Of a DNA stretch of 64,000 bases, positions 21,016-64,000 are shown piece after piece; the stretch's first letter is position 1, and each line of letters opens with the position of its first letter. Source of the DNA: a virus. The position numbers and the translations under genes were made by a program. Location: positions 40,081 to 104,080 of the IMG/VR virus record IMGVR_UViG_3300037468_000183; one strand, given 5' to 3'. The notes beneath the pieces are model-generated. The model made no database searches and was not told where the DNA came from. It saw nothing but the letters and a program-made list of their open reading frames with translations.

Positions 21016-21044
21016 TTGCGTTTTCGCGCATCCGGGTGTATGCT
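21016..21044 (+). promoter_or_regulatory. Putative late/packaging operon promoter (near-leaderless transcript)
   Basis: TTGCGT-17 bp-TATGCT, 9 nt before ATG 21054; no SD. Confidence 0.5.
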
Positions 21045-21053
21045 TGTGACGCC

Positions 21054-22409
21054 ATGAATCTAAGCGAGTTTCGTCCCGCACGAGTCAACGCAAATCGCCA
21101 CACGGCGCGCGGCATCGGCGCGCTCGAAAAGAGCATCCAGTCAGACGGCTGGATCGGCGCGATGACCACCGCCGCCGATGGCGAGATGATCGCCGGCAGC
21201 GCCCGCATCGAGACGGCGGCGGGCGTGTTCGGCGTGGACGCGGAGCCGGTTGTCATCCACAGCGACGGCAAGCGGCCTATTGTTGTCATTCGCGATGACA
21301 TCCCGAACGCGTCAACGAAGGTCGCGCAACGGCTGGCGCTGGCGGACAATCGCATTCACCAGCTTGACCTGGACTTCGACGTGCAGGTGCTCACCAGCTT
21401 CGATGCCGACGTGCTGGAAGGCTTGTGGACGGGCGACGAAATCAGCGACATGGGCCAGCAGTGGGCGGATGAGCAGAGCCGCAACGCCGAAGACCCCGGC
21501 GCGCAAGTGGACAAGGCGGAGGAACTGCAAGCCAAGTGGCACGTGCAACCCGGCGACCTGTGGGCGATGGGTGACCACCGTCTGCTGTGCGGAGATTGTC
21601 GGGAGCCTGCATCCTGGGTGCGCTTGCTTGCGGGCGTCAAGGCCAATGGCGTTTTCACATCCCCGCCTTATGCCGAGCAGCGCAAGGAGCAATACGGCGG
21701 GACACCAGCCGCCGAATACGTGGCATGGTGGGAAGCGGTGCAGGCCAACGTCAAGGCGCATCTCGCGCCCGATGGTTCGTTCTTCGTGAACATCAAGCCG
21801 CACTGCGCAGACGGCGAGCGTGTGCTGTACGTGTTTGATCTGGTGCTGGCGATGAAGCGGGAGTGGGGCTGGCGTTTCGTGGATGAGTTGTGTTGGACAA
21901 ACCGGGGATTCCCTGGCGAGCCGCAAGACAGATTCCAGAACGCTTTTGAGCCGGTATATCACTTTTCGGATGGAAAAATCAAGTTTCGCCCAAAGGCCGT
22001 TTGGCATTCAAGCGATTCGGTTCCCGTACACAAGGCGGGGCAGAACTTCAGGCAATCCAATCGAGGAAACGGCTTTGAGAGTCCAGACGTAGAAAGCGGG
22101 ATGGCCTACCCTCGCAATGTCCTGGATATCCCAAATGGCAATGGCGGAGATTCGCGACACGCTGCCGCCTTTCCAGTCGCGTTGCCTGACTTCTTCGTGC
22201 GCGCCTACTCGGACGCCGGCGACGTGTGGCTTGATCCGTTCTGCGGCAGTGGCACGACGATTGTCGCCGCGCACAACAACAAGCGGCGGGGATTCGGAAT
22301 CGAGATGCTGCCGAAGTATTGCGCCGTGATCCTGGAACGCATCAGCGGCCTGGGGATTACGCCTGCACTGTTGAGCAATGGGGGAACTGTGGCCGATGGC
22401 GGGCGCTGA
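21054..22409 (+). CDS. ParB-like N-domain fused to N4/N6 DNA methyltransferase
   Basis: NANRH...IAGSAR...LALADN; HRLLCGD, FTSPPY, HAAAFP, DPFCGSGTT. Confidence 0.9.
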   Translation: MNLSEFRPARVNANRHTARGIGALEKSIQSDGWIGAMTTAADGEMIAGSARIETAAGVFGVDAEPVVIHSDGKRPIVVIRDDIPNASTKVAQRLALADNRIHQLDLDFDVQVLTSFDADVLEGLWTGDEISDMGQQWADEQSRNAEDPGAQVDKAEELQAKWHVQPGDLWAMGDHRLLCGDCREPASWVRLLAGVKANGVFTSPPYAEQRKEQYGGTPAAEYVAWWEAVQANVKAHLAPDGSFFVNIKPHCADGERVLYVFDLVLAMKREWGWRFVDELCWTNRGFPGEPQDRFQNAFEPVYHFSDGKIKFRPKAVWHSSDSVPVHKAGQNFRQSNRGNGFESPDVESGMAYPRNVLDIPNGNGGDSRHAAAFPVALPDFFVRAYSDAGDVWLDPFCGSGTTIVAAHNNKRRGFGIEMLPKYCAVILERISGLGITPALLSNGGTVADGGR

Positions 22410-29833: not shown

Positions 29834-30295
29834 ATGGCGACTAGGGGCTTTGAATTCGGGTACATGCTCGACGGGAGCATGGCGACACCCGTCATTCGCG
29901 ACTTCATCCTGAGCACGGCGGCGGCGCACAAGGCCGGCGACCTGATGGTGCTGGACTCGGATGGCGATCTGACGCAGGCGGCGACCAACGCCACGGAAGT
30001 AACGGCGGTGTGTCAAGAGACCGTCGCTGCCGCGGCGATCACGGCGAGCACGACAAAAGCCAAATGCGCGATCATCACGCGCAACCAGGTTTGGCGCTGT
30101 TCGACGGATAACGATCACTGGAATGCCTCGTGGGTCATCGGCTACACCAAGACCGGCAACCTTGTGGACTGCAACACCATCGACCACAACGTGCCGACCA
30201 GTGGCGGCATGATCCTGGTGGACACCGGCACGGATGACGAGGGCAAGGCAATGGGTTATGTCATCTTTGCCGATACCACGTTCGGCAACGCATAG
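29834..30295 (+). CDS. Capsid decoration/cement protein, paralogue 1
   Basis: Between scaffold and MCP; GFEF...GDL.V pattern. Confidence 0.7.
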   Translation: MATRGFEFGYMLDGSMATPVIRDFILSTAAAHKAGDLMVLDSDGDLTQAATNATEVTAVCQETVAAAAITASTTKAKCAIITRNQVWRCSTDNDHWNASWVIGYTKTGNLVDCNTIDHNVPTSGGMILVDTGTDDEGKAMGYVIFADTTFGNA

Positions 30296-30304
30296 GAGGC
30301 GAAC

Positions 30305-30760
30305 ATGGCTACTGCTGGATTCGAGTTCGCCTACTCTCTGGACGGCAGCCACGCGACGCCGGTTATCCGGGATCTCCCGGTACACGGCACCGGGGCCTAT
30401 GCCATCGGCGACCTGGTGGTCGTTAACGGTTCTGCGGGCGGCGAGGTGGTGCGCGTCACTAGCACGACCGCGGAAGTAACCGGCGTGATGCAGGAGACGC
30501 GGGCGTCCGGGTCGGATGCCGCGCTAATGAAGGTCGCGCTCATCATGCGGGAACAGGTCTGGCGTTGCTCGATGGACGCGGCGACCACGGCGTTCGTCGT
30601 CGGCTACACCAAGAGCATCGACACGACGGATCACAACACCATCAGCGCGAGCGATTCGACTGGCGGCAAGATGATCCTGGTGGACAAGTCTGAACTCGAT
30701 GGCGACGGCAACGTTCTGGCCTACGTGGTGTTTTCGGATACCACGTTCGGCAATACATAG
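30305..30760 (+). CDS. Capsid decoration/cement protein, paralogue 2
   Basis: Tandem paralogue of the preceding gene. Confidence 0.7.
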   Translation: MATAGFEFAYSLDGSHATPVIRDLPVHGTGAYAIGDLVVVNGSAGGEVVRVTSTTAEVTGVMQETRASGSDAALMKVALIMREQVWRCSMDAATTAFVVGYTKSIDTTDHNTISASDSTGGKMILVDKSELDGDGNVLAYVVFSDTTFGNT

Positions 30761-30772
30761 GACAGGTGACAC

Positions 30773-31681
30773 ATGGCAATCTCCGAACAATGGGCGCAGT
30801 TGCTCGAACCGGGCCTGCGCGAAGTTTTCTATCACACGGTGGAGCCGTTGGCGACCGCCAGCCGCATTCCACTGCTGTTCGACGTTGGCGGTAGCACGAA
30901 GGCCGCTGAGTCATTCCTGAGCGCCGGCGCGATGGGCAACTGGAAGACCTTCAAGGGCGCTATCGAGTATGACGACATCGACCAGGGCTACAAGACCACC
31001 CTGACGCACGAGGAATACGTGCAGGGCTTCAAGATCGAGCGCAAGCTGGTCGAAGACGACCAGTACGGGCTGTTCATGGATCGCCCGGCTGAGCTGGCAA
31101 TGTCGGCCATGCGCACGCGCGAGAACCATGCGGCGAGCGTGTTCTCCAACGCCTTCACGGGCGGGGCCACTGCGGGCGGCGATGCCGTGGCGCTGTGCTC
31201 GGACTCGCATCCCAATTCGCCAGCCAACGCCGGCTCGACGCAGGACAACAACGGCTTGCTCTCGCTGAGCTACGCCAACGTCGAAGCCGTGCGCCAACTG
31301 ATGCGCGCTTGGAAGGACGACCGCGGCAATCTGATTCCCGTCAATCCCGATACGCTGCTGGTGCCGGCTGAGTTGGAGAAGACGGCCTTCGAGATCGTGC
31401 GCACGGCGAACGTGCCGGACACGACCGACTACAAGGCCAACTTCGTCGCCGGCTTCATCCGCCAAACCATCGTCTGGGACTATCTGACGGATGCGAATGC
31501 CTGGTTCGTCATCGACTCGATGCGCATGAAGCAGGCGCTCAAGTGGATCGACCGGGTACCGCTGGAGTTCGCGCTCGATCCGACCAGCAATTTCCGGCTG
31601 GAGTCGCGCTGGCGCGGGTACATGCGCTACAGCTACGGCTTCAAAGATTGGCGCTGGATTTACGGGAACAACCCGTCATAA
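30773..31681 (+). CDS. Major capsid protein (Mu gpT-like family)
   Basis: LLEPGLREVF, ERKLVEDDQY, ALCSDSHP, PDTLLVP.ELE, YLTD..AWF, RYSYGFKDWR. Confidence 0.9.
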   Translation: MAISEQWAQLLEPGLREVFYHTVEPLATASRIPLLFDVGGSTKAAESFLSAGAMGNWKTFKGAIEYDDIDQGYKTTLTHEEYVQGFKIERKLVEDDQYGLFMDRPAELAMSAMRTRENHAASVFSNAFTGGATAGGDAVALCSDSHPNSPANAGSTQDNNGLLSLSYANVEAVRQLMRAWKDDRGNLIPVNPDTLLVPAELEKTAFEIVRTANVPDTTDYKANFVAGFIRQTIVWDYLTDANAWFVIDSMRMKQALKWIDRVPLEFALDPTSNFRLESRWRGYMRYSYGFKDWRWIYGNNPS

Positions 31682-31705
31682 GGCTACAGCCTGAGGAGGG
31701 TTGAC

Positions 31706-32455
31706 ATGGCACAATCAAATCTGAGCGGCCCGCTCAACATCGACGGCGCGCTGGTGGTTGGCGGCGCGGCGACGATTGCGGGCGGCATCACTTTCAGCGG
31801 TGGCACGATCAACGCGGAGAACGCGTTGGACGTGACGGGCGGCACCATCACCGTGGCAGATGTGACGGCGACGGGCGTGGTGTCTGCCGGAAACTTCACC
31901 TCGTTGGGCACGGCGGGCATTCACAACGCTGTGACCGTCCACAGCCTCGTCAACGAAGGTGCGTATTCCGGCTTCGGTACAGTCGGCATCCATGAAGCGT
32001 TGTCTGTCCACAGCCTGGTTGACGAAGGCGCACTGACGGCGCTCGGCACGACCGGACTGCAAGCGACGACCGTCTTCGGGGCACTGAACGTCATCGGCAC
32101 GGCGGGCGTACACGCCGCGGTGTCGGTGCATTCGCTGGCCTCGGAAGGCGCGATCACCGCCACGACGATCTCCGGCACCGACCTGAGCATGGTTGGCACG
32201 GCGGGCGTGCATGGCGAATTGACGGCGCACAGCATCGTGGACGAAGGCGCGTTGACGACGCTCGGCACGCTGGGCGTGCATGGCACGGCATTCGGTTTCG
32301 GCACGCAGATTTTCGGCCAAGCCGCGACGATTCCGGTGGCGGGCGGCTTCATCGGCAACATCCGCTGGAATACCGCACCGGTGGTGACAGGGCCTATCGG
32401 GTGGGTCTGCACTGCGCCAGGCACCTGGTCAGCGTTCGGGACGATTGCCGCATAA
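31706..32455 (+). CDS. Head fibre-like protein with His-containing repeats
   Basis: Follows MCP; GTxGxHxxxxxHSxxxEG repeats; C-terminal GWVCT..GTW..FG. Confidence 0.6.
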   Translation: MAQSNLSGPLNIDGALVVGGAATIAGGITFSGGTINAENALDVTGGTITVADVTATGVVSAGNFTSLGTAGIHNAVTVHSLVNEGAYSGFGTVGIHEALSVHSLVDEGALTALGTTGLQATTVFGALNVIGTAGVHAAVSVHSLASEGAITATTISGTDLSMVGTAGVHGELTAHSIVDEGALTTLGTLGVHGTAFGFGTQIFGQAATIPVAGGFIGNIRWNTAPVVTGPIGWVCTAPGTWSAFGTIAA

Positions 32456-32464
32456 GGGGGGCCA

Positions 32465-32806
32465 ATGTTGACACAGATTGGTCTTCCACCGCTGACGACG
32501 AACACAACGGGTTCGGTCGTGAGCGTCACGCCGGTCGAGGCCGAGTTGCTGGCGATTTACGTCTCCAGCAACAGCCTGGGCACCGTGACGCTCGCGACCA
32601 CCAGTCCCGCGCCTATGACGATTATGACGCTGGACACGGTAGGTACGGCGTGGTTCTATCCACGCGTACCCCTCAACACGGCGGGCACTGCCGCGGGAAC
32701 GATCCTGCTTTCCGGCGCTTACGACATCATGCCCCTGACGGGCTACGTGCAGGTCAGCACGAACGCGGCGGGCACGGTCAATGTGACGCTGGTAGTGGAG
32801 ATGTGA
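32465..32806 (+). CDS. Small beta-rich virion protein
   Basis: Position and T/V-rich composition. Confidence 0.6.
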   Translation: MLTQIGLPPLTTNTTGSVVSVTPVEAELLAIYVSSNSLGTVTLATTSPAPMTIMTLDTVGTAWFYPRVPLNTAGTAAGTILLSGAYDIMPLTGYVQVSTNAAGTVNVTLVVEM

Positions 32807-32811
32807 TAGAC

Positions 32812-32839
32812 GAGGGGCGGACATGTCCGCCCCTCTTTT
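32812..32839 (+). terminator. Intrinsic terminator
   Basis: GAGGGGCGGACATGTCCGCCCCTC palindrome followed by TTTT. Confidence 0.7.
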
Positions 32840-32854
32840 ACAGGAGACAAAATC

Positions 32855-33448
32855 ATGGCAGACGAAGACACAACCTGGAAAGAGACGGTCGAACAGGCCA
32901 ACTCACAAAATCTCAAGCGTTTCGTTGACGAGTGGGCGGAGGTCTCGCACAACAAGGCGAGCCAGCAAGCAGGCCTCCAAGACTCGGTCAACAGCCTATT
33001 CCTGAAATGGGCGATGGACGCGCAGGGCATCACCAATCGCGCGGCAAACGACGGTGCGAACGTCAGCGCAACCCTCAACAGCGCGATGGCGTTGGCGTCG
33101 GCGCGCGGCAATGATGCTGCCGGGGCAATGCAGAACCTGATTCTTGCCGCGGCCCTGGGGCAGCAGGTGAGCATCAACAAGATGGCCGCCGAGACTGCGA
33201 GCGCGGATATTGTCGCCAAGAAAGCCGTGGACGCGGCAACGGCGGCCATGACCGGCACCAGTGCGCCGGCGCAAGGCACGTCCGGTTTCGCGCAAGGCTC
33301 GATCCAGGGCACGGGCGGCGTTGCGACATCGGCTATCATGGCGCAGATCACCAAGCTCGGTGAGGTCAATACCGCAGTGCTGGCTTCGTTGGCAGTACTG
33401 GCCGAGAAAGTCGCGGCGCTGGAAGTGGCAACCAAACCGGCTGCGTAG
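32855..33448 (+). CDS. Ala/Gln/Asn-rich helical hypothetical protein
   Basis: AGGAG RBS; flanked by hairpins. Confidence 0.7.
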   Translation: MADEDTTWKETVEQANSQNLKRFVDEWAEVSHNKASQQAGLQDSVNSLFLKWAMDAQGITNRAANDGANVSATLNSAMALASARGNDAAGAMQNLILAAALGQQVSINKMAAETASADIVAKKAVDAATAAMTGTSAPAQGTSGFAQGSIQGTGGVATSAIMAQITKLGEVNTAVLASLAVLAEKVAALEVATKPAA

Positions 33449-33471
33449 TAAGCGGAGTAAGCGGAGTAAGT

Positions 33472-33503
33472 TTGCCGCCTGTCTGACGCATTGACAGGCG
33501 GCA
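33472..33503. terminator. Stable hairpin (terminator or processing site)
   Basis: TTGCCGCCTGTC-loop-GACAGGCGGCAA, preceded by GCGGAGTAA tandem repeats. Confidence 0.55.
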
Positions 33504-33519
33504 AGAGGAAGTAGCGCCA

Positions 33520-33912
33520 ATGTCATTCACCTACGGGCGAGCATTGACCACGGATCGCGACCGGCTGCGCTTCTACATCGGGGACGTGACCAGCGGCAGC
33601 GGGCCATTGCCGGGCAGCGTCAACTTCACGGACGAAGAGCTTGACGGGCTGTTGACTACCGAGGGCGCATGGCAGCGCGCCGAAGCCGCGGCTTTCGAGC
33701 GCCTGGCGGCGGCATGGATGGGGCATCCATCATTCTCGGCAGATGGCCTGCAACTGTCACGCTCGGATATCGCAAAAGGTTATGCCGAGAAAGCCGCGGC
33801 TTTGCGCAAAAAGTATGGCTCATCCACGGCGACGAATGTCAGCCGCGTCGGATCGCACGCGGTTACGCGCGTCGATGGTTACTCGGACGATGTGACCAGT
33901 TGGGAGACCTGA
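33520..33912 (+). CDS. Head-tail adaptor (connector) protein
   Basis: DRDRLRFYIGD...FTDEELD.LL pattern. Confidence 0.75.
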   Translation: MSFTYGRALTTDRDRLRFYIGDVTSGSGPLPGSVNFTDEELDGLLTTEGAWQRAEAAAFERLAAAWMGHPSFSADGLQLSRSDIAKGYAEKAAALRKKYGSSTATNVSRVGSHAVTRVDGYSDDVTSWET

Positions 33913-38696: not shown

Positions 38697-38891
38697 ATGC
38701 CCAACGATCTCGGCACACTCGAACTCGATCCGAACGTCGTCTTGCGCGGCGCAGTGCTGCATATCCGGCTGGTCAACGTGCGCGCCTTGCGCATCCGGTT
38801 GCTGCTCACGGCTTGGCTGCTGTGTCTGATCGGCATTCTGCTGGATTGCTACATCGTATTTGACAAAGAGGACGCGGAGGAGGGCGCATGA
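38697..38891 (+). CDS. Small hypothetical protein
   Basis: GAGG RBS; hydrophobic C-terminal half. Confidence 0.5.
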   Translation: MPNDLGTLELDPNVVLRGAVLHIRLVNVRALRIRLLLTAWLLCLIGILLDCYIVFDKEDAEEGA

Positions 38892-39091
38892 GGCTACTGC
38901 TATTCCGAATCGACCTACAGCCGCAGTTTCAAGGGCTGGACTGGGAAGCCGTGCGCTTCGAGCATTGTACCGCCGAAGCTCAGAACGCAGTGCGCGCTGT
39001 GGGGATGGGGCAGTACTGGGAGATGGACGATTACGTTGACGGCGCGTATACCGACATTCGATCCGATGACCAGCACAAGACGGGTGCCTAG
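38888..39091 (+). CDS. Small hypothetical protein
   Basis: GGAGGAGG RBS, ATGA coupling. Confidence 0.5.
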   Translation: MRLLLFRIDLQPQFQGLDWEAVRFEHCTAEAQNAVRAVGMGQYWEMDDYVDGAYTDIRSDDQHKTGA

Positions 39092-39094
39092 TCG

Positions 39095-39475
39095 ATGACC
39101 AGCTTTATCAGCGCCGCAGAACTGACACAGATGCGCGCCGACGCCGCACGCACGTTGCTGGACGCAACCTGCACGCTGTTGACGCCGACTGCAAATGTCA
39201 ATGGCATTGGCGAGACAACGTTGACTTGGGGCACAGTTGGCGTTGCGGTGCCGTGTCGTCTGCGGCCGGCTGGTCTCCAGGCGCAGATGGTGCAGCTTGG
39301 CGGCCAGCCGCAAACGTCCGCTGACTGGCAATTGACGCTGCCGTTTGGCACGGTCACGGTTGCGCCAGGTGACCGCGTGGTGATCGACGGCGCAACCTTC
39401 GAGGTCAAACAAAGCATCGAGGAAGAAACGTGGCGCACGGCTGTGCGGGTGAACATGCTCCGCATTGAGGTTTGA
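39095..39475 (+). CDS. Head closure / stopper protein
   Basis: PCRL...LTLPFGT...GDRVVIDG.TFEV. Confidence 0.8.
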   Translation: MTSFISAAELTQMRADAARTLLDATCTLLTPTANVNGIGETTLTWGTVGVAVPCRLRPAGLQAQMVQLGGQPQTSADWQLTLPFGTVTVAPGDRVVIDGATFEVKQSIEEETWRTAVRVNMLRIEV

Positions 39476-39476
39476 C

Positions 39477-39857
39477 GTGTCTATCGTGACAACGGTGGTT
39501 TTCGACAACTTGCCAGCGCTGAACAAGCAGGCGACAGCGATGGCGGTGCAGGCGGTGAAGAAAGCCGCTTTCGATATCGAGGAGCACGCGAAGACGATTG
39601 TGCCTGTGGATACCGGCTTCCTGAAGAACTCGATTGCGACACAGGTCGGGGCCGATGGGTTGCACAGTCCACGGGGGTCATCTTCGCATCAGCACTCACC
39701 AGCAAACGACTTGACGGCCTACGTTGGGGCACACGCGGAGTATGCGGCGAATGTCGAGTACGGTCTCGGCCAACGACCGCAGCCGTACTTGCGGCCCGCA
39801 GTCGAGCGGGTGCGACCGGCGTTTATCGAGGCGATGAAGCAGATCGCGAAGATGTGA
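39477..39857 (+). CDS. HK97 gp10-like tail completion protein
   Basis: PVDTGFLKNSI, EYAANVEYG, PQPYLRPA. Confidence 0.9.
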   Translation: MSIVTTVVFDNLPALNKQATAMAVQAVKKAAFDIEEHAKTIVPVDTGFLKNSIATQVGADGLHSPRGSSSHQHSPANDLTAYVGAHAEYAANVEYGLGQRPQPYLRPAVERVRPAFIEAMKQIAKM

Positions 39858-54926: not shown

Positions 54927-55565
54927 ATGATCGGTAAATGGATAACTGGCACAGGCGGTCTGAATCTCGAAATCGTGCCTTACGAGACGCGCCCGGATGC
55001 CGCGCGTTGGCAGGGCGGGCCGGTGTATCGCGTCAAGGACATATTCTCGACGCGCAACGGCTCATGGGAAACCAGTACCGATTTTGGCGGCATCGACCAA
55101 TGGGCGAAGGATGCGTACTGGTCGGGTGCCAAGTTCGACGGGGCAGGCGGCGACCACAACTTTTTCATCCTGGCGCTGGATGAAGCGGGCCAGCCGATCC
55201 CCGGTAAGGGCCTGCTGTTCTGGCAAGGCGCAATGACCGCTGATTTCACTCCGAGCGACCCGCGCACGGCGAAACATGACGGCTCTGAGAATATCCCGGT
55301 ATTCGGCTCGTATGCGCCGGATCGCGACGAGCATGGTTCGTGGAGCGGCGCGGTACTGGGTAAGAGCGATGTGCTGATGGGCGTCGGGATGCCGTGGAAT
55401 CATCACGTCTCGACGTTCCTGGTGCTACAAGCGGTTGCTGATTCCCAGCCCCCGCCACGACCGCCCGAACCTCTACCGGATGCCGACTTCCAGAAGACCG
55501 TATTGGCGCATCTCGACGCCATTTATTTGCGGCTCGATGACATGGCGAAGCACTTGGGCGCATGA
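54927..55565 (+). CDS. Hypothetical protein with a Chloroflexota-like extracellular domain
   Basis: GGDHNFFILALDEAG.P..G and SDVL.G.GMP.NHHVS motifs; lies where a lysin usually sits. Confidence 0.55.
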   Translation: MIGKWITGTGGLNLEIVPYETRPDAARWQGGPVYRVKDIFSTRNGSWETSTDFGGIDQWAKDAYWSGAKFDGAGGDHNFFILALDEAGQPIPGKGLLFWQGAMTADFTPSDPRTAKHDGSENIPVFGSYAPDRDEHGSWSGAVLGKSDVLMGVGMPWNHHVSTFLVLQAVADSQPPPRPPEPLPDADFQKTVLAHLDAIYLRLDDMAKHLGA

Positions 55566-55591
55566 AAACATGTGAGGGGCGCGCTAAAATA

Positions 55592-57958
55592 ATGGTCAAA
55601 CTCGTGACGGTCATCCTAGTGGCCTCTTTGCTGGCTGGCTGTATCGCGCCGCCATATACCAGCGTTGGCAACTATCGCGCCACGTTGCCGCTGCAAATCC
55701 CCCGGCAAATGCCTGCTATGCCACGTGCGCCGCAGACGGCGACCTGGACATACGCGCTGCCTGCGAAGGCGTGTCCCTGGTCAGCCACGGACAGCAATTG
55801 CCATTATAGTTCGCCCGCGCTCGCTGATCTCAATCATACTGGTACACTGGATATTATTGTCGCGACAAATAACGGCCATGTCGTGGCAATCGATCATGCC
55901 GGTAAGCTGCTTTGGGATGTGGATGTGGCACCCTTCTTCGGCATGGCGGCGGGTACTCAGGAAATCGCTTCATCTCCAGCCGTGGGCGATATCGATGCCG
56001 ATGGTGAGTTGGAGATCGCGGTAGGCGTTGGTAGCGTCTATCCTTCCGTCTGCACCACGGGCGGTGTGATCGTCCTGGACAATCAAGGCCGAATCAAGCC
56101 TGGCTGGCCGCAACTGGCCGACGATTGGAGCCTGCCGCTCGGTTGTCGCGATACCGTTTTCAGCACGCCTGCGCTAGGCGATCTCGACAAGGACGGCAAG
56201 CTGGAAATCGTGGTTGGCAGTTTCGACATGAAAATCTATGCCTGGCGCGCGGACGGCACACTCATGCCGGGTTTCCCGCCCGATGGCGCTCATGCCGCGC
56301 GCTTTCCGACTGAGCCGGAACTACAAGGCCGTCTCAGTGATACCATCTGGTCATCGCCCGCGCTGGGCGACTTAGACCGTGATGGCTTCCTGGAAATCGT
56401 CATCGGCAGCGACGAGGGCAACCGACCGCCGGGCTATAGCTGCCCTTATCGCCTGCCCCCGAATTGGCGGCCCGACTACTGCGGCGGCGCGCTCTATGTC
56501 CTGGATCGCTTTGGGCGCTATCTGCCGGGCTTCCCGAAGTACGTTCTCGATATCATCGCATCCTCGCCCGCGCTGGTGGATTTGGATGGCGACGGCTGGC
56601 TGAATATCGTGGTGGGTACTGGCCCGTTCTACTACGATAACAGCCCCAACTATCCCGTCAGTGGCTTTCGGGTCTACGCCTGGAATCATCGCGGCAATGA
56701 TCTACCGGGCTGGGAGGGCGGTAAGCTCGTTGGCGGCCCAACACCTGCTTCCCCCAGCATTGGCGATCTGGACGGTGATGGCGAACCGGAAATAGTCGGG
56801 GCAACCTATGATCCAGAGCGTAAGCTGTACGCCTGGCATGTTGACGGTGCGCTATTGCCCGGCTTCCCGATGGCACCAACCTTCAACGGCGTGACTTACG
56901 CCAGCTTCGACACGCCCGCGAATTTCATCCTGGCGGATTACAATGGCGACGGCAAGCAGGAAATCTTTTTCAGCACCGGCTGGCTGGTAACAGTCGTGGA
57001 CGGTACTGGACAGCAGCTTACCAACACCGGCTATGGCAGCCCATTACCATCCTACATGACAAACGGCTCGCTGATCAATAATCCCGCCATTGGTGACCTG
57101 CATCAAGACGGCAGACTGGCGTTGATTGCCACTAACAGCCAAGTCACTGTTTGGGATTTACCGCGTGCTGACCGGGCAGCCGCCTGGCCGCTCTTTCGCA
57201 ACAACGTATCACGCACAGGCAGCCTGGGCGCAATCATACCTCTGCCCATCATTCCCCATAGCGCACGCGGGCTTGTGGAACGCTTCTATCTGCATGTCCT
57301 GCGGCGCGCACCGGATCAGACGGGTATGGATACCTGGACTAATGCGCTACTGGATCGGGCCATGAGCGGGGCTGATCTGGCGCGTGCGTTTGTCCTCAGT
57401 TCGGAGTTTGGCGACAGCAACACCACCAATGACGATTTCCTAACCATCATATATCGCGCATTCTTCGACCGCGTGCCGGATGCTGACGGTTACAACGTCT
57501 GGCTCAGTGCACTCAACAATGGACTACCGCGCGTCGAAATGCTGGACGGCTTTATCCGTTCGCGCGAATTTGCTGAACTATGCGATAGGTACGGCATCCG
57601 CGCCAACACGACGCACCAGGACAAGCTACGCACCTACATAATGCGCCTGTATCGCGAAGTCTTGGGCCGCGCCCCAGATGCCGCGGGGTTGGCGATGTGG
57701 GCCACGGGCAACCATACGGGCAGCGAGATGGCGCGCGGCTTCGTGCTCAGCCAGGAGTTCAGCAAACGCGCGTTCAGCGACGAGCAATTCGTGACCATGC
57801 TGTATCGCGCGCTCCTTAATCGCGTGCCGGATAGTGGCGGCTTTGACTTCTGGCTCGCTAATTTGCAGAGCGGCATGAGTCGAGATCGCGTGTTGGAGAG
57901 CTTTATCGGTTCGGCGGAATTTGCCAAACTATGCGAGAGCTACGGTATCGCACCATAA
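55592..57958 (+). CDS. Lipoprotein with FG-GAP/VCBS repeats and two DUF4214-like domains
   Basis: Lipobox LLAGC; repeated SSPALGDLD.DG.LEIV; FV..LYRA.L.R.PD..G...W...F..S.EF; alternative start 55562. Confidence 0.85.
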   Translation: MVKLVTVILVASLLAGCIAPPYTSVGNYRATLPLQIPRQMPAMPRAPQTATWTYALPAKACPWSATDSNCHYSSPALADLNHTGTLDIIVATNNGHVVAIDHAGKLLWDVDVAPFFGMAAGTQEIASSPAVGDIDADGELEIAVGVGSVYPSVCTTGGVIVLDNQGRIKPGWPQLADDWSLPLGCRDTVFSTPALGDLDKDGKLEIVVGSFDMKIYAWRADGTLMPGFPPDGAHAARFPTEPELQGRLSDTIWSSPALGDLDRDGFLEIVIGSDEGNRPPGYSCPYRLPPNWRPDYCGGALYVLDRFGRYLPGFPKYVLDIIASSPALVDLDGDGWLNIVVGTGPFYYDNSPNYPVSGFRVYAWNHRGNDLPGWEGGKLVGGPTPASPSIGDLDGDGEPEIVGATYDPERKLYAWHVDGALLPGFPMAPTFNGVTYASFDTPANFILADYNGDGKQEIFFSTGWLVTVVDGTGQQLTNTGYGSPLPSYMTNGSLINNPAIGDLHQDGRLALIATNSQVTVWDLPRADRAAAWPLFRNNVSRTGSLGAIIPLPIIPHSARGLVERFYLHVLRRAPDQTGMDTWTNALLDRAMSGADLARAFVLSSEFGDSNTTNDDFLTIIYRAFFDRVPDADGYNVWLSALNNGLPRVEMLDGFIRSREFAELCDRYGIRANTTHQDKLRTYIMRLYREVLGRAPDAAGLAMWATGNHTGSEMARGFVLSQEFSKRAFSDEQFVTMLYRALLNRVPDSGGFDFWLANLQSGMSRDRVLESFIGSAEFAKLCESYGIAP

Positions 57959-57973
57959 CGGCATTCAATCCGC

Positions 57974-58013
57974 AAACACAAAGCCCGCTGCGTGTGCAAC
58001 GGGCTTTGTGTTT
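57974..58013. terminator. Bidirectional intrinsic terminator between the convergent arms
   Basis: AAACACAAAGCCCG-loop-CGGGCTTTGTGTTT. Confidence 0.85.
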
Positions 58014-58024
58014 CACGTGAAACA
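58009..58024. promoter_or_regulatory. parS: parS site (chromosomal-type ParB binding palindrome)
   Basis: Perfect TGTTTCACGTGAAACA. Confidence 0.85.
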
Positions 58025-58050
58025 TTCGCGGCGCTCAGCCGTCATGCGCG

Positions 58051-58272
58051 TCAAGCGGCATCTGCACGGCGCGCGGCTCCGGCTCGCGGCAGGCCATCGC
58101 TCTGACCGTTCCAGTCATCGAACAGGATCGAACAGAACGAGTTGGCGCGATTGCAAACCTTGCACGTGACGCCATCGCTCAGGTAGTAGCCAACATTCGT
58201 TTTCACGTCCGCGACTTCGCGTCCGCAAGGCGTCCTGCCTGTAGGTTGCCAGCGATGTACTATGTTGCTCAT
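58051..58272 (-). CDS. Small Cys-containing protein
   Basis: VH...CG...VTCKVC. Confidence 0.55.
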   Translation of the reverse strand: MSNIVHRWQPTGRTPCGREVADVKTNVGYYLSDGVTCKVCNRANSFCSILFDDWNGQSDGLPRAGAARRADAA

Positions 58273-58277
58273 GTTGC

Positions 58278-58448
58278 TCAGTCCTCCAGCGCCACCGGCG
58301 CGCAGGTCGCCGCGTCCACGAGCAGATCATCGCCGCCATTCTCCGTGCGGATGTACAAGCGTTGCCCGTCCGCATGGCCGCAGATGACGACGGCGGGATG
58401 ACCGTCGTGCAGGATGCGGTCGCCGGGCAGATAGATGTTACGACTCAT
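58278..58448 (-). CDS. Small SH3-like protein
   Basis: GGAGG RBS; PGDRILHDG.PAVV. Confidence 0.55.
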   Translation of the reverse strand: MSRNIYLPGDRILHDGHPAVVICGHADGQRLYIRTENGGDDLLVDAATCAPVALED

Positions 58449-58869
58449 CGGATGCCTCCAGAGAACAGATGATATCCAAGTACTCATCCCATGTCCAGCC
58501 GTGGGCGCGGCGTCGAGCGTCGAGCTTGGCGCGGGTCGCCGGCTGGATGCCGCCGATGCCGACTGTGCTGCGCTTGCGTGGCCGCCTGGCATTCCATTTG
58601 TCAAGCCGCTCCCACAAACTGCAGCCAGACAAGTCGGTCTCTCTGCTACGCTCTATCAAGTACTTGCCAAACTCAGCGTCGATTCTCGCAATCCTACGGA
58701 AACCATTGGCGCGGAATTGCTCGCCGTCACTATCGACAACGAAGTAGCGGATGCGCTTCTCCTCAACTCCCTCGACGTGATCCAGGGAGCCGACGCACCA
58801 ATGATCCTGCGGATCGCCATCACTCCACTTGGTAGCTAGGACGTATTCACCTTTTTGTATGTCAGACAT
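58438..58869 (-). CDS. Hypothetical protein with C-terminal RHH-like domain
   Basis: GGAGG RBS; C-terminus shared with 59143-59664. Confidence 0.7.
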   Translation of the reverse strand: MSDIQKGEYVLATKWSDGDPQDHWCVGSLDHVEGVEEKRIRYFVVDSDGEQFRANGFRRIARIDAEFGKYLIERSRETDLSGCSLWERLDKWNARRPRKRSTVGIGGIQPATRAKLDARRRAHGWTWDEYLDIICSLEASDES

Positions 58870-58923
58870 CACATTCCTCCAGTAGCTTCTGCAATTGCCC
58901 ACGGCGCACCTGTTTGTCGATGC

Positions 58924-59130
58924 TCAGTCGTGGCCGGTAGCACGGCGGGGACGTTTTGCGCGCCGGCTTTCGTTATAATTTCCGACAAAAACCAGCTTCT
59001 TCCGGCGCATGATGAACGGCCCACGCGCCCGCGTGCCGCAGCGCAGACAAGTAACGCCAATATGCGACACGTCTTCCTTGTATCCGCAGTCGCACATGCC
59101 AAACGGACCGCCAAGCAAAAAGTGAATCAT
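58924..59130 (-). CDS. Small Zn-finger protein
   Basis: CDCG...VTCLRC; GGGAGGG RBS. Confidence 0.5.
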   Translation of the reverse strand: MIHFLLGGPFGMCDCGYKEDVSHIGVTCLRCGTRARGPFIMRRKKLVFVGNYNESRRAKRPRRATGHD

Positions 59131-59142
59131 CTTCCCTCCCAT

Positions 59143-59664
59143 TCATCCCGCGTCATCGAATGCCTCCTCAAGTGATGCGATGATTTCTAGGTACTCGTCC
59201 CATGTCCAGCCGTGGGCGCGGCGACGGGCGTCGAGCTTGGCGCGTGTCGCGGGCTGGATGCCGCCAATGCCGACTGTGGTGCGCTGGCGTGGCTGTGGCG
59301 CGGGCAATGTTTCACGTGAAACATGCGGCGCGTCCGTGACGCGCTCGCCGGGGGCCAGGATCACGACCGCCGCGATGGGCGCGTTGTGGCAGTCGCCGGC
59401 GATGTGGATGCCGTGGCAGGAGGGACAGGGCGTGAGCATGAACGGTTCTGGCAACGGGGACAGGCCCAGGTGCTTCCGCAAGTCGTTCTCGCTTGCCAGT
59501 GTCAACGCTCCGGGGCGTCTGCGCAGCACGTCCGAAAGCGTCCCAATGGTATTCCGGGGCAGTCCGAGAGTGTCCGCCAGGATGCGCAGAGAGGCACCGC
59601 ATTTTCGCTCAGACAATGCGGACACGGTAGACTCATCTGTGTAATGGAGTGCCCTAGTGTACAT
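59143..59664 (-). CDS. HTH + Zn-knuckle + RHH-like DNA-binding protein
   Basis: SLRILADTLGL..TLSDVL; CPSCHGIH; shared C-terminal module. Confidence 0.7.
   Translation of the reverse strand: MYTRALHYTDESTVSALSERKCGASLRILADTLGLPRNTIGTLSDVLRRRPGALTLASENDLRKHLGLSPLPEPFMLTPCPSCHGIHIAGDCHNAPIAAVVILAPGERVTDAPHVSRETLPAPQPRQRTTVGIGGIQPATRAKLDARRRAHGWTWDEYLEIIASLEEAFDDAG
59308..59323. promoter_or_regulatory. parS: Second parS site (within a CDS, encodes VSRET)
   Basis: Perfect TGTTTCACGTGAAACA, extending to an 18-bp palindrome at 59307-59324. Confidence 0.85.
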
Positions 59665-59735
59665 TTAGCCTTGCCTCTTGTAGTGTGATTCTACGGGTAC
59701 TGTGCCAGGGTGCGAAATCTGGCGCTACGGACGTT

Positions 59736-60221
59736 TTAGCTTTCTGGAGAATGATGATTGTCCGCGTACTCCGCATCGATCTTCCTCGCTGACCAGACGC
59801 GTAGACGTGTCAAGAACCTTGCCCATTCATCCGGCGTGTAGGTTCGCCATTCTTTATCTGGCTGCGGATGCAATCGCATGACTCTGAACTCCGCAATATC
59901 CCACCACTGCTTATCAGCGGGATTCCTTTCATCTGCCAATCTGTAAAGCAGCACGTAGGCTGGCAGTATCGGATTGCATCGCTGCGCAAGGCGTGTGGTC
60001 ACGGTTGCGGGTTTGTAGTCCTGCCCAACATCCCTCGCGGTTTCGATCAGTGCGAGTGGTTCTTTTGTCGAATCGTCATACTCGACATAAAGCGATGCGT
60101 CAAGATCAATCATCGCCAGGACTTGCGCGGTTTCGATGCCAACAAAGCGCCGTGTTGATTCGCGACGATGCCATGCTGAGTATGATCTATCGCGCGTGTT
60201 GTAGATTTCCTCTTGAGGCAT
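59736..60221 (-). CDS. PD-(D/E)xK-like protein coupled to the MTase
   Basis: YSAWHR...IDLD...VEY...ALIETA; TAATG coupling to the MTase. Confidence 0.5.
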   Translation of the reverse strand: MPQEEIYNTRDRSYSAWHRRESTRRFVGIETAQVLAMIDLDASLYVEYDDSTKEPLALIETARDVGQDYKPATVTTRLAQRCNPILPAYVLLYRLADERNPADKQWWDIAEFRVMRLHPQPDKEWRTYTPDEWARFLTRLRVWSARKIDAEYADNHHSPES

Positions 60222-61522
60222 TACGACACCTCCCAAACCACAATCTCCCTGGTAAGTACCAGGCATTTGCGGTTCGCTTTCGCCCATATCACCATCTGCG
60301 CATTGGCTTGCTGGCTCTCGTAGGGGACTGAGTAGCGCATGTCAACCGGGAGCTTGACCATTCTTAGCATGTCGCCAACGTGATCCGTGTAACTCTTGTT
60401 ATCTGCCTTCCACTGCGTTGGTTGGATGATCAGCGCGATGTAGGCCGGTTTCTCTCGCACGGATGTTTTCAGTTTTGACGCAAACGCCTTGATGATGCCG
60501 GATAGCGCGCCGTTGAACTGCTCAATCGTGATATTCGCTAGGTCGGTAGCATCCTTGCTGTACTGGCCTTCGGCTTGCTTCCAGTATGGCGGATCAAGAT
60601 AGACTAAACCTACGTCCTTCCAGCGCGGCACACTTGGCAAGATAATCGCACCGTCCGCAGCAAGCAGATCGTGCTGCCTGATATCTTCGCGCTCGACAAT
60701 CGGCTTGCGATCACTGGCGTAGTAACGGCGCATACGTCTCTTGCATAACTCAATCGTGCTACCGCCTCCCGCAAAGGGATCGACAACCACGTCGAATGGT
60801 TCGGTGTACAGGTAAAGTAGATTGTCAAGCCATTGGATCTCCGAGTTGCCGAAGTGCTTGACGCCGTTGGTCTTTTCCTGTTGCTTCCAGATGTTGTAGA
60901 TTGGCGGCTTCCATTCCGGCTCGGCATAGGTCGCGAGCGTTTGCGCAGGTTTCGTCAGTTTTTCCAGTTCTGGAAATTCTGACCAAATCTCGCTAATCGC
61001 GCCATCGCTCAAATCCTCACTTAGCGCGATTTCCTCTCGTGTCCAGCACGCCAGCCACTTGGCGAAAATGCGCTTGTTCCTGGCGTCCTTCGTGTCCTTG
61101 TCGATACGCGATAACCAAGACTCCACGGTTGACAATGACACGCTCAGGATGCGCGCGAGGTCTTTCTTTTTGTCTGCGCGGGCACGCTCGGCTGTGCTGT
61201 TGTAAATCCGGCGCGCCATGTCCTGCTTGTCCTCCTGGCTGAGTTGTAAGCCATGGGCGGCATTGCGCTCGATTGCCAATTCCAGCAGATGCGCGTCGCT
61301 TGTCGTCTGGGTGATGATAACGGAGATGGTTGGAGAATTGGCTTTCTTGTGCGCTGTCCAGCGATGCCAACCGTCGATCAATATGTCGTTTTGGTTGATC
61401 TCGATTGGCGGAAGTACAGTCAGATCGTCGGCGTACTTTTGGACGGTTTCGGGACTCTTGGCGATGCGCGGATACAGGTCTTCGCGCCAGATGATATCTT
61501 GCGTGTTACGTGATTCTGACAT
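60221..61522 (-). CDS. ParB-like N-domain + HTH + DNA methyltransferase (alpha class)
   Basis: PPI...LIDGWHR, N..HG; DPFAGGGST then YLDPPYW. Confidence 0.85.
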   Translation of the reverse strand: MSESRNTQDIIWREDLYPRIAKSPETVQKYADDLTVLPPIEINQNDILIDGWHRWTAHKKANSPTISVIITQTTSDAHLLELAIERNAAHGLQLSQEDKQDMARRIYNSTAERARADKKKDLARILSVSLSTVESWLSRIDKDTKDARNKRIFAKWLACWTREEIALSEDLSDGAISEIWSEFPELEKLTKPAQTLATYAEPEWKPPIYNIWKQQEKTNGVKHFGNSEIQWLDNLLYLYTEPFDVVVDPFAGGGSTIELCKRRMRRYYASDRKPIVEREDIRQHDLLAADGAIILPSVPRWKDVGLVYLDPPYWKQAEGQYSKDATDLANITIEQFNGALSGIIKAFASKLKTSVREKPAYIALIIQPTQWKADNKSYTDHVGDMLRMVKLPVDMRYSVPYESQQANAQMVIWAKANRKCLVLTREIVVWEVS

Positions 61523-61534
61523 GACGTTTCCTCC

Positions 61535-61640
61535 AAGAACAAGAACAGCCCGCCGTTGCAAGCGTGTCGAAGGCTGCGCGGCGGGCTGTGGTTAGTCCCT
61601 TGCGGGATTGATCCCTATGTTGTTATGCAGCCTTCGACAA
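61535..61640 (-). promoter_or_regulatory. Structured 5' leader / attenuator of the ParB-MTase operon
   Basis: Terminator stem CAGCCCGCCG/CGGCGGGCTG + U-rich tail; its loop is complementary over 13 nt to the transcript 5' end. Confidence 0.7.
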
Positions 61641-61644
61641 CCAC

Positions 61645-61673
61645 ATTCTACCATACATCGCCCGCCGTGTCAA
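61645..61673 (-). promoter_or_regulatory. Sigma70-type promoter
   Basis: TTGACA-17 bp-TAGAAT with extended TG. Confidence 0.85.
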
Positions 61674-61697
61674 CCGGGCCGCGCGGCGCGCCGCGTC

Positions 61698-61859
61698 TCA
61701 TTCATGCCAGTCGATTGACCAATCAAACTTGTTGTCGATGCGGGCGTGAAAGACATTCTCGCAGCGCGGACAGGTGATCGTTACGTCGTCAATCGCAGTT
61801 GGCGGTCCGCTCACTTCCGCGCCGCACTCTGGACAGTAGTAGATATCCATTGTTACCAT
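61698..61859 (-). CDS. Zn-ribbon protein
   Basis: CPECG...CPRC. Confidence 0.6.
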   Translation of the reverse strand: MVTMDIYYCPECGAEVSGPPTAIDDVTITCPRCENVFHARIDNKFDWSIDWHE

Positions 61860-61908
61860 TCCTGCAATCAGCGGCGCGCCGAACTCCACACGGCGCGCCG
61901 TCCAGGTG

Positions 61909-62121
61909 TCAAGGCCGCGCTTCCTCGACCGTCTCAGCAATGTCTTGCGTAGCGCACTCGGCGTGGCTGATGATACTGTGCAGACTGTCCGCGATGGCGC
62001 GCTCGTTGTATTCTCGATTCTCGCCCGCCTGGAGTTGTTTGCAATATATCGCAATCATCTCAGCGCATGTTTGAATGGCGAAGGCGTGATCTTTGACTTG
62101 CAAGACACCCAGGGCATTCAT
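61909..62121 (-). CDS. Hypothetical protein
   Basis: GGAGGTG RBS, ATGA coupling. Confidence 0.55.
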   Translation of the reverse strand: MNALGVLQVKDHAFAIQTCAEMIAIYCKQLQAGENREYNERAIADSLHSIISHAECATQDIAETVEEARP

Positions 62122-62315
62122 GGTCGCACCTCCGGCGCGCATTCCTGGTGCTGATACACGTTCTCCACCAACACCCCATCGCCTTTGCCGGCGCGGATGC
62201 CGACGATGCGATATGGCGCTTGCCCGCTGATCTTCTCGCCGCACACGTCGCAGAATATCGGGAACCTATCCCGCAGCGTCTTTGCACCGTTGCCGGATTC
62301 AAGTTTGTCATCCAT
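62118..62315 (-). CDS. Zn-finger protein
   Basis: CDVCGE...HQEC. Confidence 0.6.
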   Translation of the reverse strand: MDDKLESGNGAKTLRDRFPIFCDVCGEKISGQAPYRIVGIRAGKGDGVLVENVYQHQECAPEVRP

Positions 62316-62329
62316 GTCCACGTCCCTCC

Positions 62330-62560
62330 TCAAACCGGCTCTGGCACGAACTCATCCGGGCAGCGCCACAGTACAATGCTGCCATCCGACAAGCGTACCT
62401 TGCGTGGCACGATGCTTTCGAGTTCTGCGATGCGCGCCATCAGGTGCTCATTGACAGCAGCCAGAGCCACAGCGCAATCTTCGGCGGTGCCGTGGAGCAT
62501 GAGATTCGCCACGATAGGGTTATTGATCTGCAAGACCTCAAACGGTGTCAACGGTGTCAT
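62330..62560 (-). CDS. Hypothetical protein
   Basis: GAGG RBS. Confidence 0.55.
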   Translation of the reverse strand: MTPLTPFEVLQINNPIVANLMLHGTAEDCAVALAAVNEHLMARIAELESIVPRKVRLSDGSIVLWRCPDEFVPEPV

Positions 62561-62573
62561 GTCATCCTCTTTG

Positions 62574-63005
62574 TCATTCCAGCATCTCGATGATGAAATT
62601 CTCGGCATCGAGCGCGGCCTTCTGCCAGTCGTTCCCGACCGTGCGACCGTGCGCCAGCTTCCCGCGCGCAATCTGCATCATGTTGTGCCATTCATCCTCG
62701 GAGTGCGCGGCGCGGCGCAGCAGATCGATGACAACGGCAGCGGTGTTGCCTTCGCCGTGGTACGCATCTGGCTCATGCTCGGCCAGCCAGTCGTTGATGC
62801 GGGCGATTTGATTCTCCGGTGTGTCCATCTTCACCTTCCTGAGTGTGGCGCATGTCGCCTCCACGGTCGCGATGCGCAACTGTTCAGCCGCCGCGTCTTC
62901 GGCAGCCTGCGCGTTCAACGCTGCATCCTCGCATCTGCGCGCTTCGGCAACCGCTACCAGCCATGCCTCATAGGCCGAGATATATGTGGGTGGATCAGTC
63001 GGCAT
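62574..63005 (-). CDS. Helical hypothetical protein
   Basis: GGAGG RBS. Confidence 0.6.
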   Translation of the reverse strand: MPTDPPTYISAYEAWLVAVAEARRCEDAALNAQAAEDAAAEQLRIATVEATCATLRKVKMDTPENQIARINDWLAEHEPDAYHGEGNTAAVVIDLLRRAAHSEDEWHNMMQIARGKLAHGRTVGNDWQKAALDAENFIIEMLE

Positions 63006-63414
63006 GATTGCCTCCGTTGCGCACGCCGCGCCGCACATCTTCCGTGGACTTTTTGACGGCCGCGGCCATCACGTCGAAAGCGTATTCGTCGGCCCACGTC
63101 AGCGCCTCCGCTGTGTTCGCCAGCGTCACCGCCACGTCTGGCAGTTCATCCTTCAACCCGGCGTATGACCGGATGCGCCCGTAGCTCTGCCAGCGCTTCA
63201 GATCATCGAACTCAGCGCGCGCTGCGTCGTGCAACGTGGCGATCAGTTCGTCGGTTTGGCCGCTGAAGCCCTCGACATGGCGCGCCGCCTCGCAGGCTTC
63301 CTCAAGCAGCTTGCAGACCTGGCGTGCCGTCAGTTGTTCGGCGGTGAGTCCTGCCGTGTAGCCACGTGCTACCAGCGCCTCGAAGATAGCTCCCTGGGCC
63401 TCAAGTGTGTTCAT
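62995..63414 (-). CDS. MazG-like nucleotide pyrophosphohydrolase
   Basis: KLLEEACEA ... KDELPDV (EExxE / ExxD). Confidence 0.65.
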   Translation of the reverse strand: MNTLEAQGAIFEALVARGYTAGLTAEQLTARQVCKLLEEACEAARHVEGFSGQTDELIATLHDAARAEFDDLKRWQSYGRIRSYAGLKDELPDVAVTLANTAEALTWADEYAFDVMAAAVKKSTEDVRRGVRNGGNHAD

Positions 63415-63998
63415 TGCGTTGTGTCCTCTCTGTCCCGAATCCAATACTCCCAAACGCCATCACGCTTCCTGCGAGCCAGTGTGCCTTTCTTCTCCATCCT
63501 CGTCAGACAGTTGCTCGCCAACGAGCCGGGAAGATCGAGCACAGCGTTGACCTCCCGGAATGTCAGCGGTGTCGATGCCGTGACCAGCAGAGCCACCACC
63601 TTTTCAATGTGCTTCTGCTTGCGACCGACCGGGTTGGCCGGCACAGGCGAAGGCACGGCGTTACCCGTTGCCAGCCAAGTCGTGCGTTCCTTGCAGCGTT
63701 CGGGACGTGCGAGACCCACGGCAACGATACGGCTCTGATTGCGCAGCAAACGCCACGCACCCAGCAGCAACGACTTCTCTCTGTCCACGCCAACGCAACA
63801 CTCGGAGAACATCGCTGGACGATCCAGGAGGAGCAGGTTTGCCAGCAGCGTTTCAGCGACCGCGGCAATCTGTACGCGCCTTTGCTCGGCCACGGCTTGC
63901 GCGTCTGCCTCGTCAACCGCTGCACGGCAGACAACCGCCTCCCGCGCGATGTTGGCGCGCTGGCATTCTGCGTAGTACGGACAGGCAGGCCGTTTGGT
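63411..63998 (-). CDS. Winged-helix-containing protein, 5' end outside the window
   Basis: Frame is open to the window edge; LTFREVNAVL...LTRMEKKG..R. Confidence 0.55.
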   Translation of the reverse strand, partial: TKRPACPYYAECQRANIAREAVVCRAAVDEADAQAVAEQRRVQIAAVAETLLANLLLLDRPAMFSECCVGVDREKSLLLGAWRLLRNQSRIVAVGLARPERCKERTTWLATGNAVPSPVPANPVGRKQKHIEKVVALLVTASTPLTFREVNAVLDLPGSLASNCLTRMEKKGTLARRKRDGVWEYWIRDREDTTQ

Positions 63999-64000
63999 CT

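Follow-up and report, generated by a model that had tools for sequence, protein, structure and literature searches.

Two perfect chromosomal-type parS sites, conserved as DNA, in a tailed sediment phage without recognisable ParA, stand-alone ParB or integrase genes: candidate docking sites for host ParB

The final 64,000 nucleotides of an IMG/VR virus record of 104,080 bp from an uncultured phage of freshwater sediment (IMGVR_UViG_3300037468_000183, positions 40,081 to 104,080; hereafter the window, to which all coordinates refer unless given as record positions) carry two perfect copies of a 16-bp palindrome of the chromosomal parS type, the site to which bacterial ParB binds. The first is intergenic and the second lies inside a coding sequence (CDS), exactly where the initial annotation of this DNA had placed them. 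The record is most simply read as two related phages: 'phage B', the cycle at record 39647-103953, which gives a 64,307-bp circular map of which the window covers 64,000 bp, and 'phage A' (record 1-39646), the private arm of a second phage that shares its early/replication module with phage B. The features at the locus, including four open reading frames (ORFs) between the sites and a gene with a helix-turn-helix (HTH)-like N-terminus, are as follows.

57974-58013, + strand: GC-rich hairpin (14-bp stem) at the end of the transcript of the tail-fibre gene, with the first 5 nt of parS-1 included in its 3' arm
58009-58024: parS-1, perfect TGTTTCACGTGAAACA between genes, where the late (+) and early (-) arms converge
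58025-58075, - strand: stub of a deleted N6/N4 methylase gene, its last ~13 codons, ending in RAVQMPLDAHDG and the stop codon; abuts parS-1
58051-58272, 58278-58451, 58438-58902 and 58924-59142, - strand: four small ORFs between the sites (gene calls based on GC at third codon positions, GC3)
59143-59664, - strand: 173-aa gene hosting parS-2, with an HTH-like N-terminus, a zinc-ribbon-like motif, an AVVILAPGERV motif, a variable linker and an exchangeable C-terminal module
59308-59323: parS-2, perfect TGTTTCACGTGAAACA, within the linker of CDS 59143-59664 (-)

Both sites agree at 16 of 16 bases with TGTTNCACGTGAAACA, the near-universal chromosomal parS consensus (PMC7022226), which bears out their initial description as conserved bacterial chromosomal parS, and the window is otherwise free of parS at up to two mismatches. 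The whole record holds four perfect sites, the further two lying in phage A at record positions 34535 and 36680, in paralogous positions. TGTTTCACGTGAAACA was absent from all 100 dinucleotide-preserving shuffles, and by our own arithmetic base composition predicts ~1e-5 occurrences per 100 kb at 60% GC; with none expected in shuffles, a chance occurrence was rejected. The paired sites are 1299 bp apart in phage B, 2145 bp apart in phage A and 2197 bp apart in L129, a metagenome locus described below. While chromosomal parS are clustered near oriC beside the parAB operon (PMC7022226, PMC7383237), the sites described here, identical to that 16-bp consensus, are found on a virus without parAB and are therefore referred to as orphan sites.

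Site 1 is fused to the terminator at the arm junction, as had been noted before, in that it overlaps the hairpin following the tail-fibre gene. This hairpin has a minimum free energy of -34.5 kcal/mol (z = -3.8), and none of 200 shuffles was as stable in the RNA fold comparison. None of the four small ORFs between the sites (58051-59142) matched a Pfam or PHROG family. In a metatranscriptome library of another study (run X8), a 265-nt contig spans 57984-58248 with three differences and thus includes the hairpin, parS-1 and the first of the small ORFs; possible DNA carry-over means that this contig is not proof of transcription. Other contigs from the sediment samples (runs X1 and X2) have two parS only 18-40 nt apart with unrelated spacers, and these may belong to the host chromosome or to additional elements.

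At site 2 the palindrome forms part of the codons of the 173-aa gene, again in line with the earlier description. The encoded protein contains a zinc-ribbon-like motif (CPSC..HIAGDC) and a variable linker (TDAP..VSRET..PRK), and its comparison with the Atlas gave HTH leads only, all of them weak (sub-0.8). Its 14 database homologues have in common a core (CPSC..HIAGDC..P[IV]AAVVILAPGERV) with exchangeable N- and C-terminal modules, and site 2 is located in the variable linker downstream of this conserved core. The site is spelled xxT GTT TCA CGT GAA ACA, encoding (H)VSRET, with codons that are all minor in the record (GTT 0.14, TCA 0.10, CGT 0.12, GAA 0.39 and ACA 0.13); with codons drawn at the frequencies of the record itself, VSRET would be spelled in this way with a probability of ~8e-5. 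The residue preceding VSRET varies (H, D or N), and its codon ends in T in every case. The five sequences that have the site agree at all 16 of its bases (100% identity), amid 40-nt flanks that average 57-58% identity. A scan of metagenome contigs recovered eight loci encoding relatives of the site-2 gene, three of which (L125, L126 and L129) have a perfect parS in the same linker, while in the more distant L127, L128 and L130-132, as well as in protein P0014, likewise a more distant homologue, precisely this linker segment is absent and no parS is present at up to two mismatches. Because of the rare-codon spelling, the invariant T-ending codon and the 16/16 identity amid diverged flanks, the pattern at site 2 points to selection on the DNA site and not on the peptide.

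The genes at 58438-58902 and 59143-59664 also have an 86%-identical 3' module in common (58445-58582 and 59153-59293), which encodes TVGIGGIQPATRAKLDARRRAHGWTWDEYL. The same module is found on metagenome contigs L125 and L126 joined to other N-terminal parts, and it constitutes an exchangeable C-terminal domain.

Site 1 was examined in the three genomes that have kept it. Sites of this type are located ~10 nt past the stop codon that ends an N6/N4 methylase gene, and this gene is present in full length beside the site in phage A (PF01555, 2.5e-35) and in L129. In these two genomes the site-1-type parS (record 34535 in phage A; one mismatch in L129, 2.2 kb from its site-2 type) follows the methylase stop codon and is followed in turn by a ribosome-binding site with a gene whose product begins MAYFVTY. 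This MAYFVTY-type gene has been replaced in phage B by the strong hairpin and the converging tail-fibre gene, and of the methylase gene the stub abutting parS-1 and the sequence upstream of its start (58330-58437) remain. Site 1 has therefore apparently outlived the adjoining methylase gene in phage B, which argues that it is kept as DNA. A role for site 1 as part of a hairpin only was rejected, since phage A and L129 have the site but not the hairpin.

The scan of relatives for parS that the initial annotation had proposed showed that the two-site layout recurs in phage A and L129, while relatives of the head module (portal 54-57% identical), which include a complete 61-kb genome, have no parS. 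The parS trait is thus accessory and, because these head-module relatives are without it, travels with a small early-arm cassette and not with the lineage.

The absence of an integrase, ParA and stand-alone ParB, first remarked on for the 64-kb window, was found to extend to the whole 104,080-bp record. Six-frame profile searches of the entire record, each of which was positive in most control genomes, gave no match to tyrosine integrases (PF00589), resolvase-type serine recombinases (PF00239), ParA (PF13614 and PF01656) or the ParB HTH (PF17762), and the only match to PF02195 was a sub-threshold one of 14.6 bits inside a methylase gene. Since the window is nearly the complete genome (64,307-bp map), the concern that an integrase or a cognate par locus might reside in an unseen part of it is closed. 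No prophage relatives were present among 185,579 species genomes, and no related plasmids were found. The other concern raised earlier, that the contig might be host DNA from the vicinity of oriC, was likewise removed; host-DNA contamination was rejected on the grounds that the sites lie within phage genes on a circular phage map.

The plasmid-prophages P1 (parABS) and N15 (sopABC), as well as actinobacteriophages with parABS, encode their own ParA and ParB, use private centromeres and are maintained extrachromosomally instead of being integrated. The record described here differs from them in encoding neither a ParA ATPase nor a cognate ParB. With chromosomal-type parS, no cognate ParA, ParB or integrase, and sites that are conserved as DNA in relatives, the use of host ParB is the most economical reading, and we infer that the palindromes probably are functional orphan parS of the host type that dock host ParB. 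The core of the initial interpretation, namely the borrowing of host ParB, is thereby backed by comparative sequence evidence. Its more specific proposal, an extrachromosomal prophage segregated by the host ParABS, found no independent support, as neither a repressor or lysogeny module nor any prophage or plasmid relatives turned up. A single chromosomal parS together with host par genes has been reported to stabilise unstable plasmids (PMC7022226).

According to the mechanism we propose, host chromosomal ParB dimers (CTP clamps of the Spo0J type) would nucleate on the two sites once the phage DNA has entered the cell, and the clamps would then slide onto the adjoining phage DNA to form a small partition complex. 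Because the site pair is located at the point where the late and early arms converge, transcription arriving from both sides may sweep the sliding clamps back towards the sites and not off them. Unintegrated phage genomes could then be handled like a chromosome origin by the ParA/ParB(-SMC) machinery of the host, and they would be retained and distributed in dividing or differentiating infected cells, be it in a carrier state, in dormancy or in a plasmid-like state, much as in the entrapment of phi29 in spores. That inheritance in particular is the pay-off, as the analogy with phi29 would have it, is a tentative proposal to which we give somewhat less than even credence.

Phage phi29 provides the closest known parallel. 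As summarised in PMC2731898 and PMC9437464 from Meijer et al. 2005, it has five parS sites that are bound by host Spo0J and encodes no ParB; thanks to these sites, according to the same summaries, the genome is taken into the prespore by the host's segregation machinery. The virulent Bacillus phages phi29 and Nf, as portrayed in these accounts, resemble the phage described here in having several host-ParB sites while encoding no ParA, ParB or integrase, and the phage B sites are in addition kept by apparent selection in relatives. On the other hand, phi29 is described there as a podovirus with a protein-primed 19-kb genome that infects a low-GC spore former and has Spo0A boxes beside the sites that pause the lytic cycle, while phage B has 64 kb, 60% GC and a tape-measure protein, with two perfect sites at a convergent arm junction, one of them in a coding linker. 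Neither boxes for a host regulator, for which no search was made, nor a tie to sporulation were identified in phage B. A second parallel is SGI1, which has no ParAB of its own, carries two mimics of the parS of another replicon and rides on the ParABS of the IncC plasmid, whose ParB/ParA stabilise it (PMC10954446). SGI1 differs in being an integrative element that targets the par system of a helper plasmid and involves the helper protein Sci, whereas here the carrier is a phage and the proposed target is the chromosomal system.

Several observations weigh against the proposed use of host ParB. The parS of the host is assumed from a near-universal consensus, the parS-free relatives of the head module are joined by some homologues of the site-2 gene that also lack parS, and a protein with a ParB/Noc-like HTH is encoded 0.9 kb from site 2. 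Furthermore, no repressor, lysogeny or dormancy module was recognised among the phage B genes, so that the pay-off is argued by analogy only. With respect to the host, the nearest genome match was a phage-like contig in a Chloroflexota metagenome-assembled genome (TerL 53% and portal 33% identity), and the site-2 family had no match in the genome-contig collection. The sampled Chloroflexota genomes have ParB together with the same parS or variants with one mismatch; the consensus is too widespread to discriminate between hosts.

The main alternative retains the docking of host ParB and differs in the pay-off alone. During lytic growth, the sites would soak up host ParB and its ParA/SMC partners as the phage DNA reaches high copy number, either derailing origin segregation and division of the host or compacting and positioning the pool of replicating phage DNA, and would play no part in inheritance. 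The same sequence evidence that speaks for the inheritance proposal speaks for this one, and the phage does look lytic, with no integrase or recognisable repressor, a DnaB-like helicase and a PriCT-2 primase, and no prophage relatives in the species genomes searched. That titration can work is evident from SGI1, whose borrowed parS stabilise their carrier yet at raised copy number act as an incompatibility or titration factor (PMC10954446). Two sites per genome would nevertheless be a small sink unless the copy number is high, and phi29, the one studied case of phage parS as far as PMC2731898 recounts it, uses its sites for inheritance and not for titration. We regard diversion of host ParB as unlikely to be the main purpose of the sites.

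According to a second alternative the phage reads its own sites through a protein encoded nearby, which would bind the palindromes to target methylation or nicking or would form a clamp of its own, leaving host ParB irrelevant. The candidate is one of two ParB-domain methylases in the window:

60221-61561, - strand: 446-aa protein in which a ParB/Noc-like N-terminal domain and HTH are joined to an N6/N4 methylase; gene 0.9 kb away from site 2
21036-22409: ParB-domain methylase of phage B

The initial annotation was right in describing the ParB-like domains at these two places as fused to methylases, but it had missed that the copy near site 2 has a full ParB/Noc N-terminal plus HTH module. Over the N-terminal domain and HTH, the profile of the 446-aa protein family has matches to Noc, ParB and Spo0J chains (E 3.5e-5 to 6e-4), and an AlphaFold model (pLDDT 90.6) aligns to Noc, Caulobacter ParB-parS, KorB and Spo0J over ~190-215 columns (Foldseek E ~1e-5); the protein thus has the fold of a ParB N-terminal domain with HTH, while its C-terminal half is an N6/N4 methylase. 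This likeness and the proximity to site 2 favour a reading of the sites by the phage itself. However, the residues that would be expected to make the contacts are largely missing. ParB contacts parS through Q162, G170, K171, S172, R173 and N178 of its HTH (Caulobacter numbering; PMC7383237), and in an hhalign comparison of the family with canonical ParBs from Chloroflexota genomes (95.6% probability), in which the GKSRSxVAN recognition segment stands opposite LSVSLSTVES, S172 alone was kept while Q162, G170, K171, R173 and N178 were replaced; the 446-aa protein does not have the parS contacts of a canonical ParB. In addition, the size of the family (2,373 members) points to a common type of phage methylase. 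A hidden Markov model (HMM) of the N-terminal half of the 446-aa protein finds no second copy elsewhere in the record, so that the parS pair of phage A is retained in the absence of a protein of this kind. A ParB-methylase fusion studied so far nicks non-specifically, as summarised in PMC5512222, and phage ParB-domain methylases as treated in that source (e.g. Bce_0392) are ParB/Srx-type enzymes and not partition proteins; the 60221-61561 copy differs in keeping a ParB-like HTH, although not the residues that read parS. The 446-aa protein is accordingly an unlikely reader of the sites to judge from its sequence, and we consider self-reading as a whole very improbable.

A third group of explanations dispenses with ParB. 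The palindromes could be operators of a phage HTH protein such as the site-2 gene product, parts of a terminator, targets of a methylase or restriction enzyme (core CACGTG), or recombination hotspots at mosaic boundaries. Such uses would fit the fusion of site 1 to a strong hairpin, the location of site 2 in a probable HTH gene (weak leads) at the boundary of exchangeable modules, and the fact that contigs assembled from the source sample break off close to the conserved block. They would not lead one to expect that all four places in the record, and three metagenome relatives as well, should match the ParB site at 16/16 bases, and they are at odds with the situation in phage A and L129, where site 1 has no hairpin and is placed after a stop codon and ahead of a ribosome-binding site, and with the existence of HTH-gene homologues that have no site. 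We judge a use unrelated to ParB to be highly unlikely. Finally, that the sites are functionless passengers acquired from a host chromosome or plasmid is scarcely credible, even though phage genomes are mosaic and the trait is patchy among relatives, given that the sites are perfectly kept between flanks down to ~57% identity, that the rare-codon spelling persists in a phage ORF at site 2, that site 1 was retained after the adjoining gene was lost, and that no host-like genes flank the sites.

The genome in which the sites reside is that of a tailed phage. On the circular map, a leftward arm of ~21 kb and a rightward one of ~42 kb converge (GC3-based gene calls), and the last gene of the late arm is the following.

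55562-57958, + strand: tail-fibre gene, 90% identical to the phage A copy

The C-terminus of the tail fibre has a weak match to a phage protease/chaperone domain. The head and tail genes of phage B encode TerL, a portal protein, a head-morphogenesis protein, a major head protein and a 1095-aa tape-measure protein, and the leftward arm encodes a DnaB-like helicase, a PriCT-2 primase, a Gp3-like protein, a VRR-NUC protein, a GIY-YIG endonuclease and methylases. No tRNA genes were found. The rightward arm is headed by an HTH_17 (excisionase/MerR-like) gene (15394-15603, +), which no integrase accompanies, and directly after it follows a gene for a 500-aa protein with a weak FtsK/SpoIIIE-like match (15903-17405, +). 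A weak MarR-like match was also present among the phage B proteins. The Gp3-like protein (9535-10773, -) resembles a recombination directionality factor (PF18897, 8e-23), with no serine integrase in the genome, and its gene is adjoined by that for a GIY-YIG/NUMOD3 homing endonuclease (10716-11396, -). Searches of cultured-phage and plasmid collections gave no DNA match to window 56500-64000 and no match to the FtsK-like protein, one partial match to the tail fibre (35%), and matches to the helicase at 22-26% identity only, and scans of viral contigs with alignments of the site-2 protein and with the tail fibre returned no relatives.

Self-comparison of the record revealed the second, related phage unit, with 86% identity between record 30289-33711 and 94612-98041 and 87% between record 38789-39773 and 103095-104080. 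Two different head modules are present in the record, and the baseplate and fibre genes are common to both. The final 127 bp of the record (103954-104080; window 63874-64000) are identical to record 39647-39773, which is the signature of a k=127 assembly path re-entering itself, and the simplest reading of the record is a lariat consisting of the cycle 39647-103953 and the arm 1-39646. The genome size implied by the lariat is backed by the 61-kb relative, which has direct terminal repeats and a single head module. Given the similar depth (27-33) of A-specific and B-specific contigs in the source run, the record may alternatively represent a single ~120-kb molecule with a duplicated shared module; the parS finding is unaffected either way. 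A circular assembly map is also what headful-packaged lytic phages give.

Perfect parS sites are not restricted to this record. A scan of IMG/VR for the exact 16-mer gave at least 119 stretches with a perfect site (examples are L026, L065, L011, L025, L069 and L075, within a range of L006-L124). Among the matches listed, 26 IMG/VR stretches hold 2-5 perfect sites at GC contents of 0.30-0.72, and 17 multi-site IMG/VR records have no ParB N-terminal domain. Two of the listed multi-site records without ParB are complete 15-16-kb genomes with inverted terminal repeats. It is conceivable, although we consider it rather doubtful, that orphan chromosomal parS are a widespread, cross-phylum phage device by which DNA is disguised as an origin-proximal region via host ParB (SMC/ParA). 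If so, phages would gain a non-integrative means of being inherited as cells divide or differentiate, and perhaps also protection against plasmid-restricting SMC-like defences, and the lineage described here would value its sites enough to write one of them into a coding linker and to let the other outlast its neighbour gene.

The novelty of a phage with host-type parS had been overstated in the initial annotation; the principle is already published for phi29, with its Spo0J-bound sites and no ParB of its own as summarised in PMC2731898. What is new here is the lineage and genome type, the rare-codon site in a coding linker, the site that outlived its neighbour gene and the placement at a convergent junction. 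Many viral contigs with multiple perfect parS and no ParB form a pattern that has barely been described in print beyond phi29, and orphan parS may, if the proposal is true, serve as an annotation marker of non-integrative persistence. If host ParB does load on these sites, 16 bp would provide a lytic-looking phage without lysogeny genes with a cheap route to inheritance or positioning by the chromosome machinery of its host. This would blur the divide between lytic and temperate phages by way of carrier states and entrapment in dormant cells, and would bear on the prediction of phage persistence from genomes.

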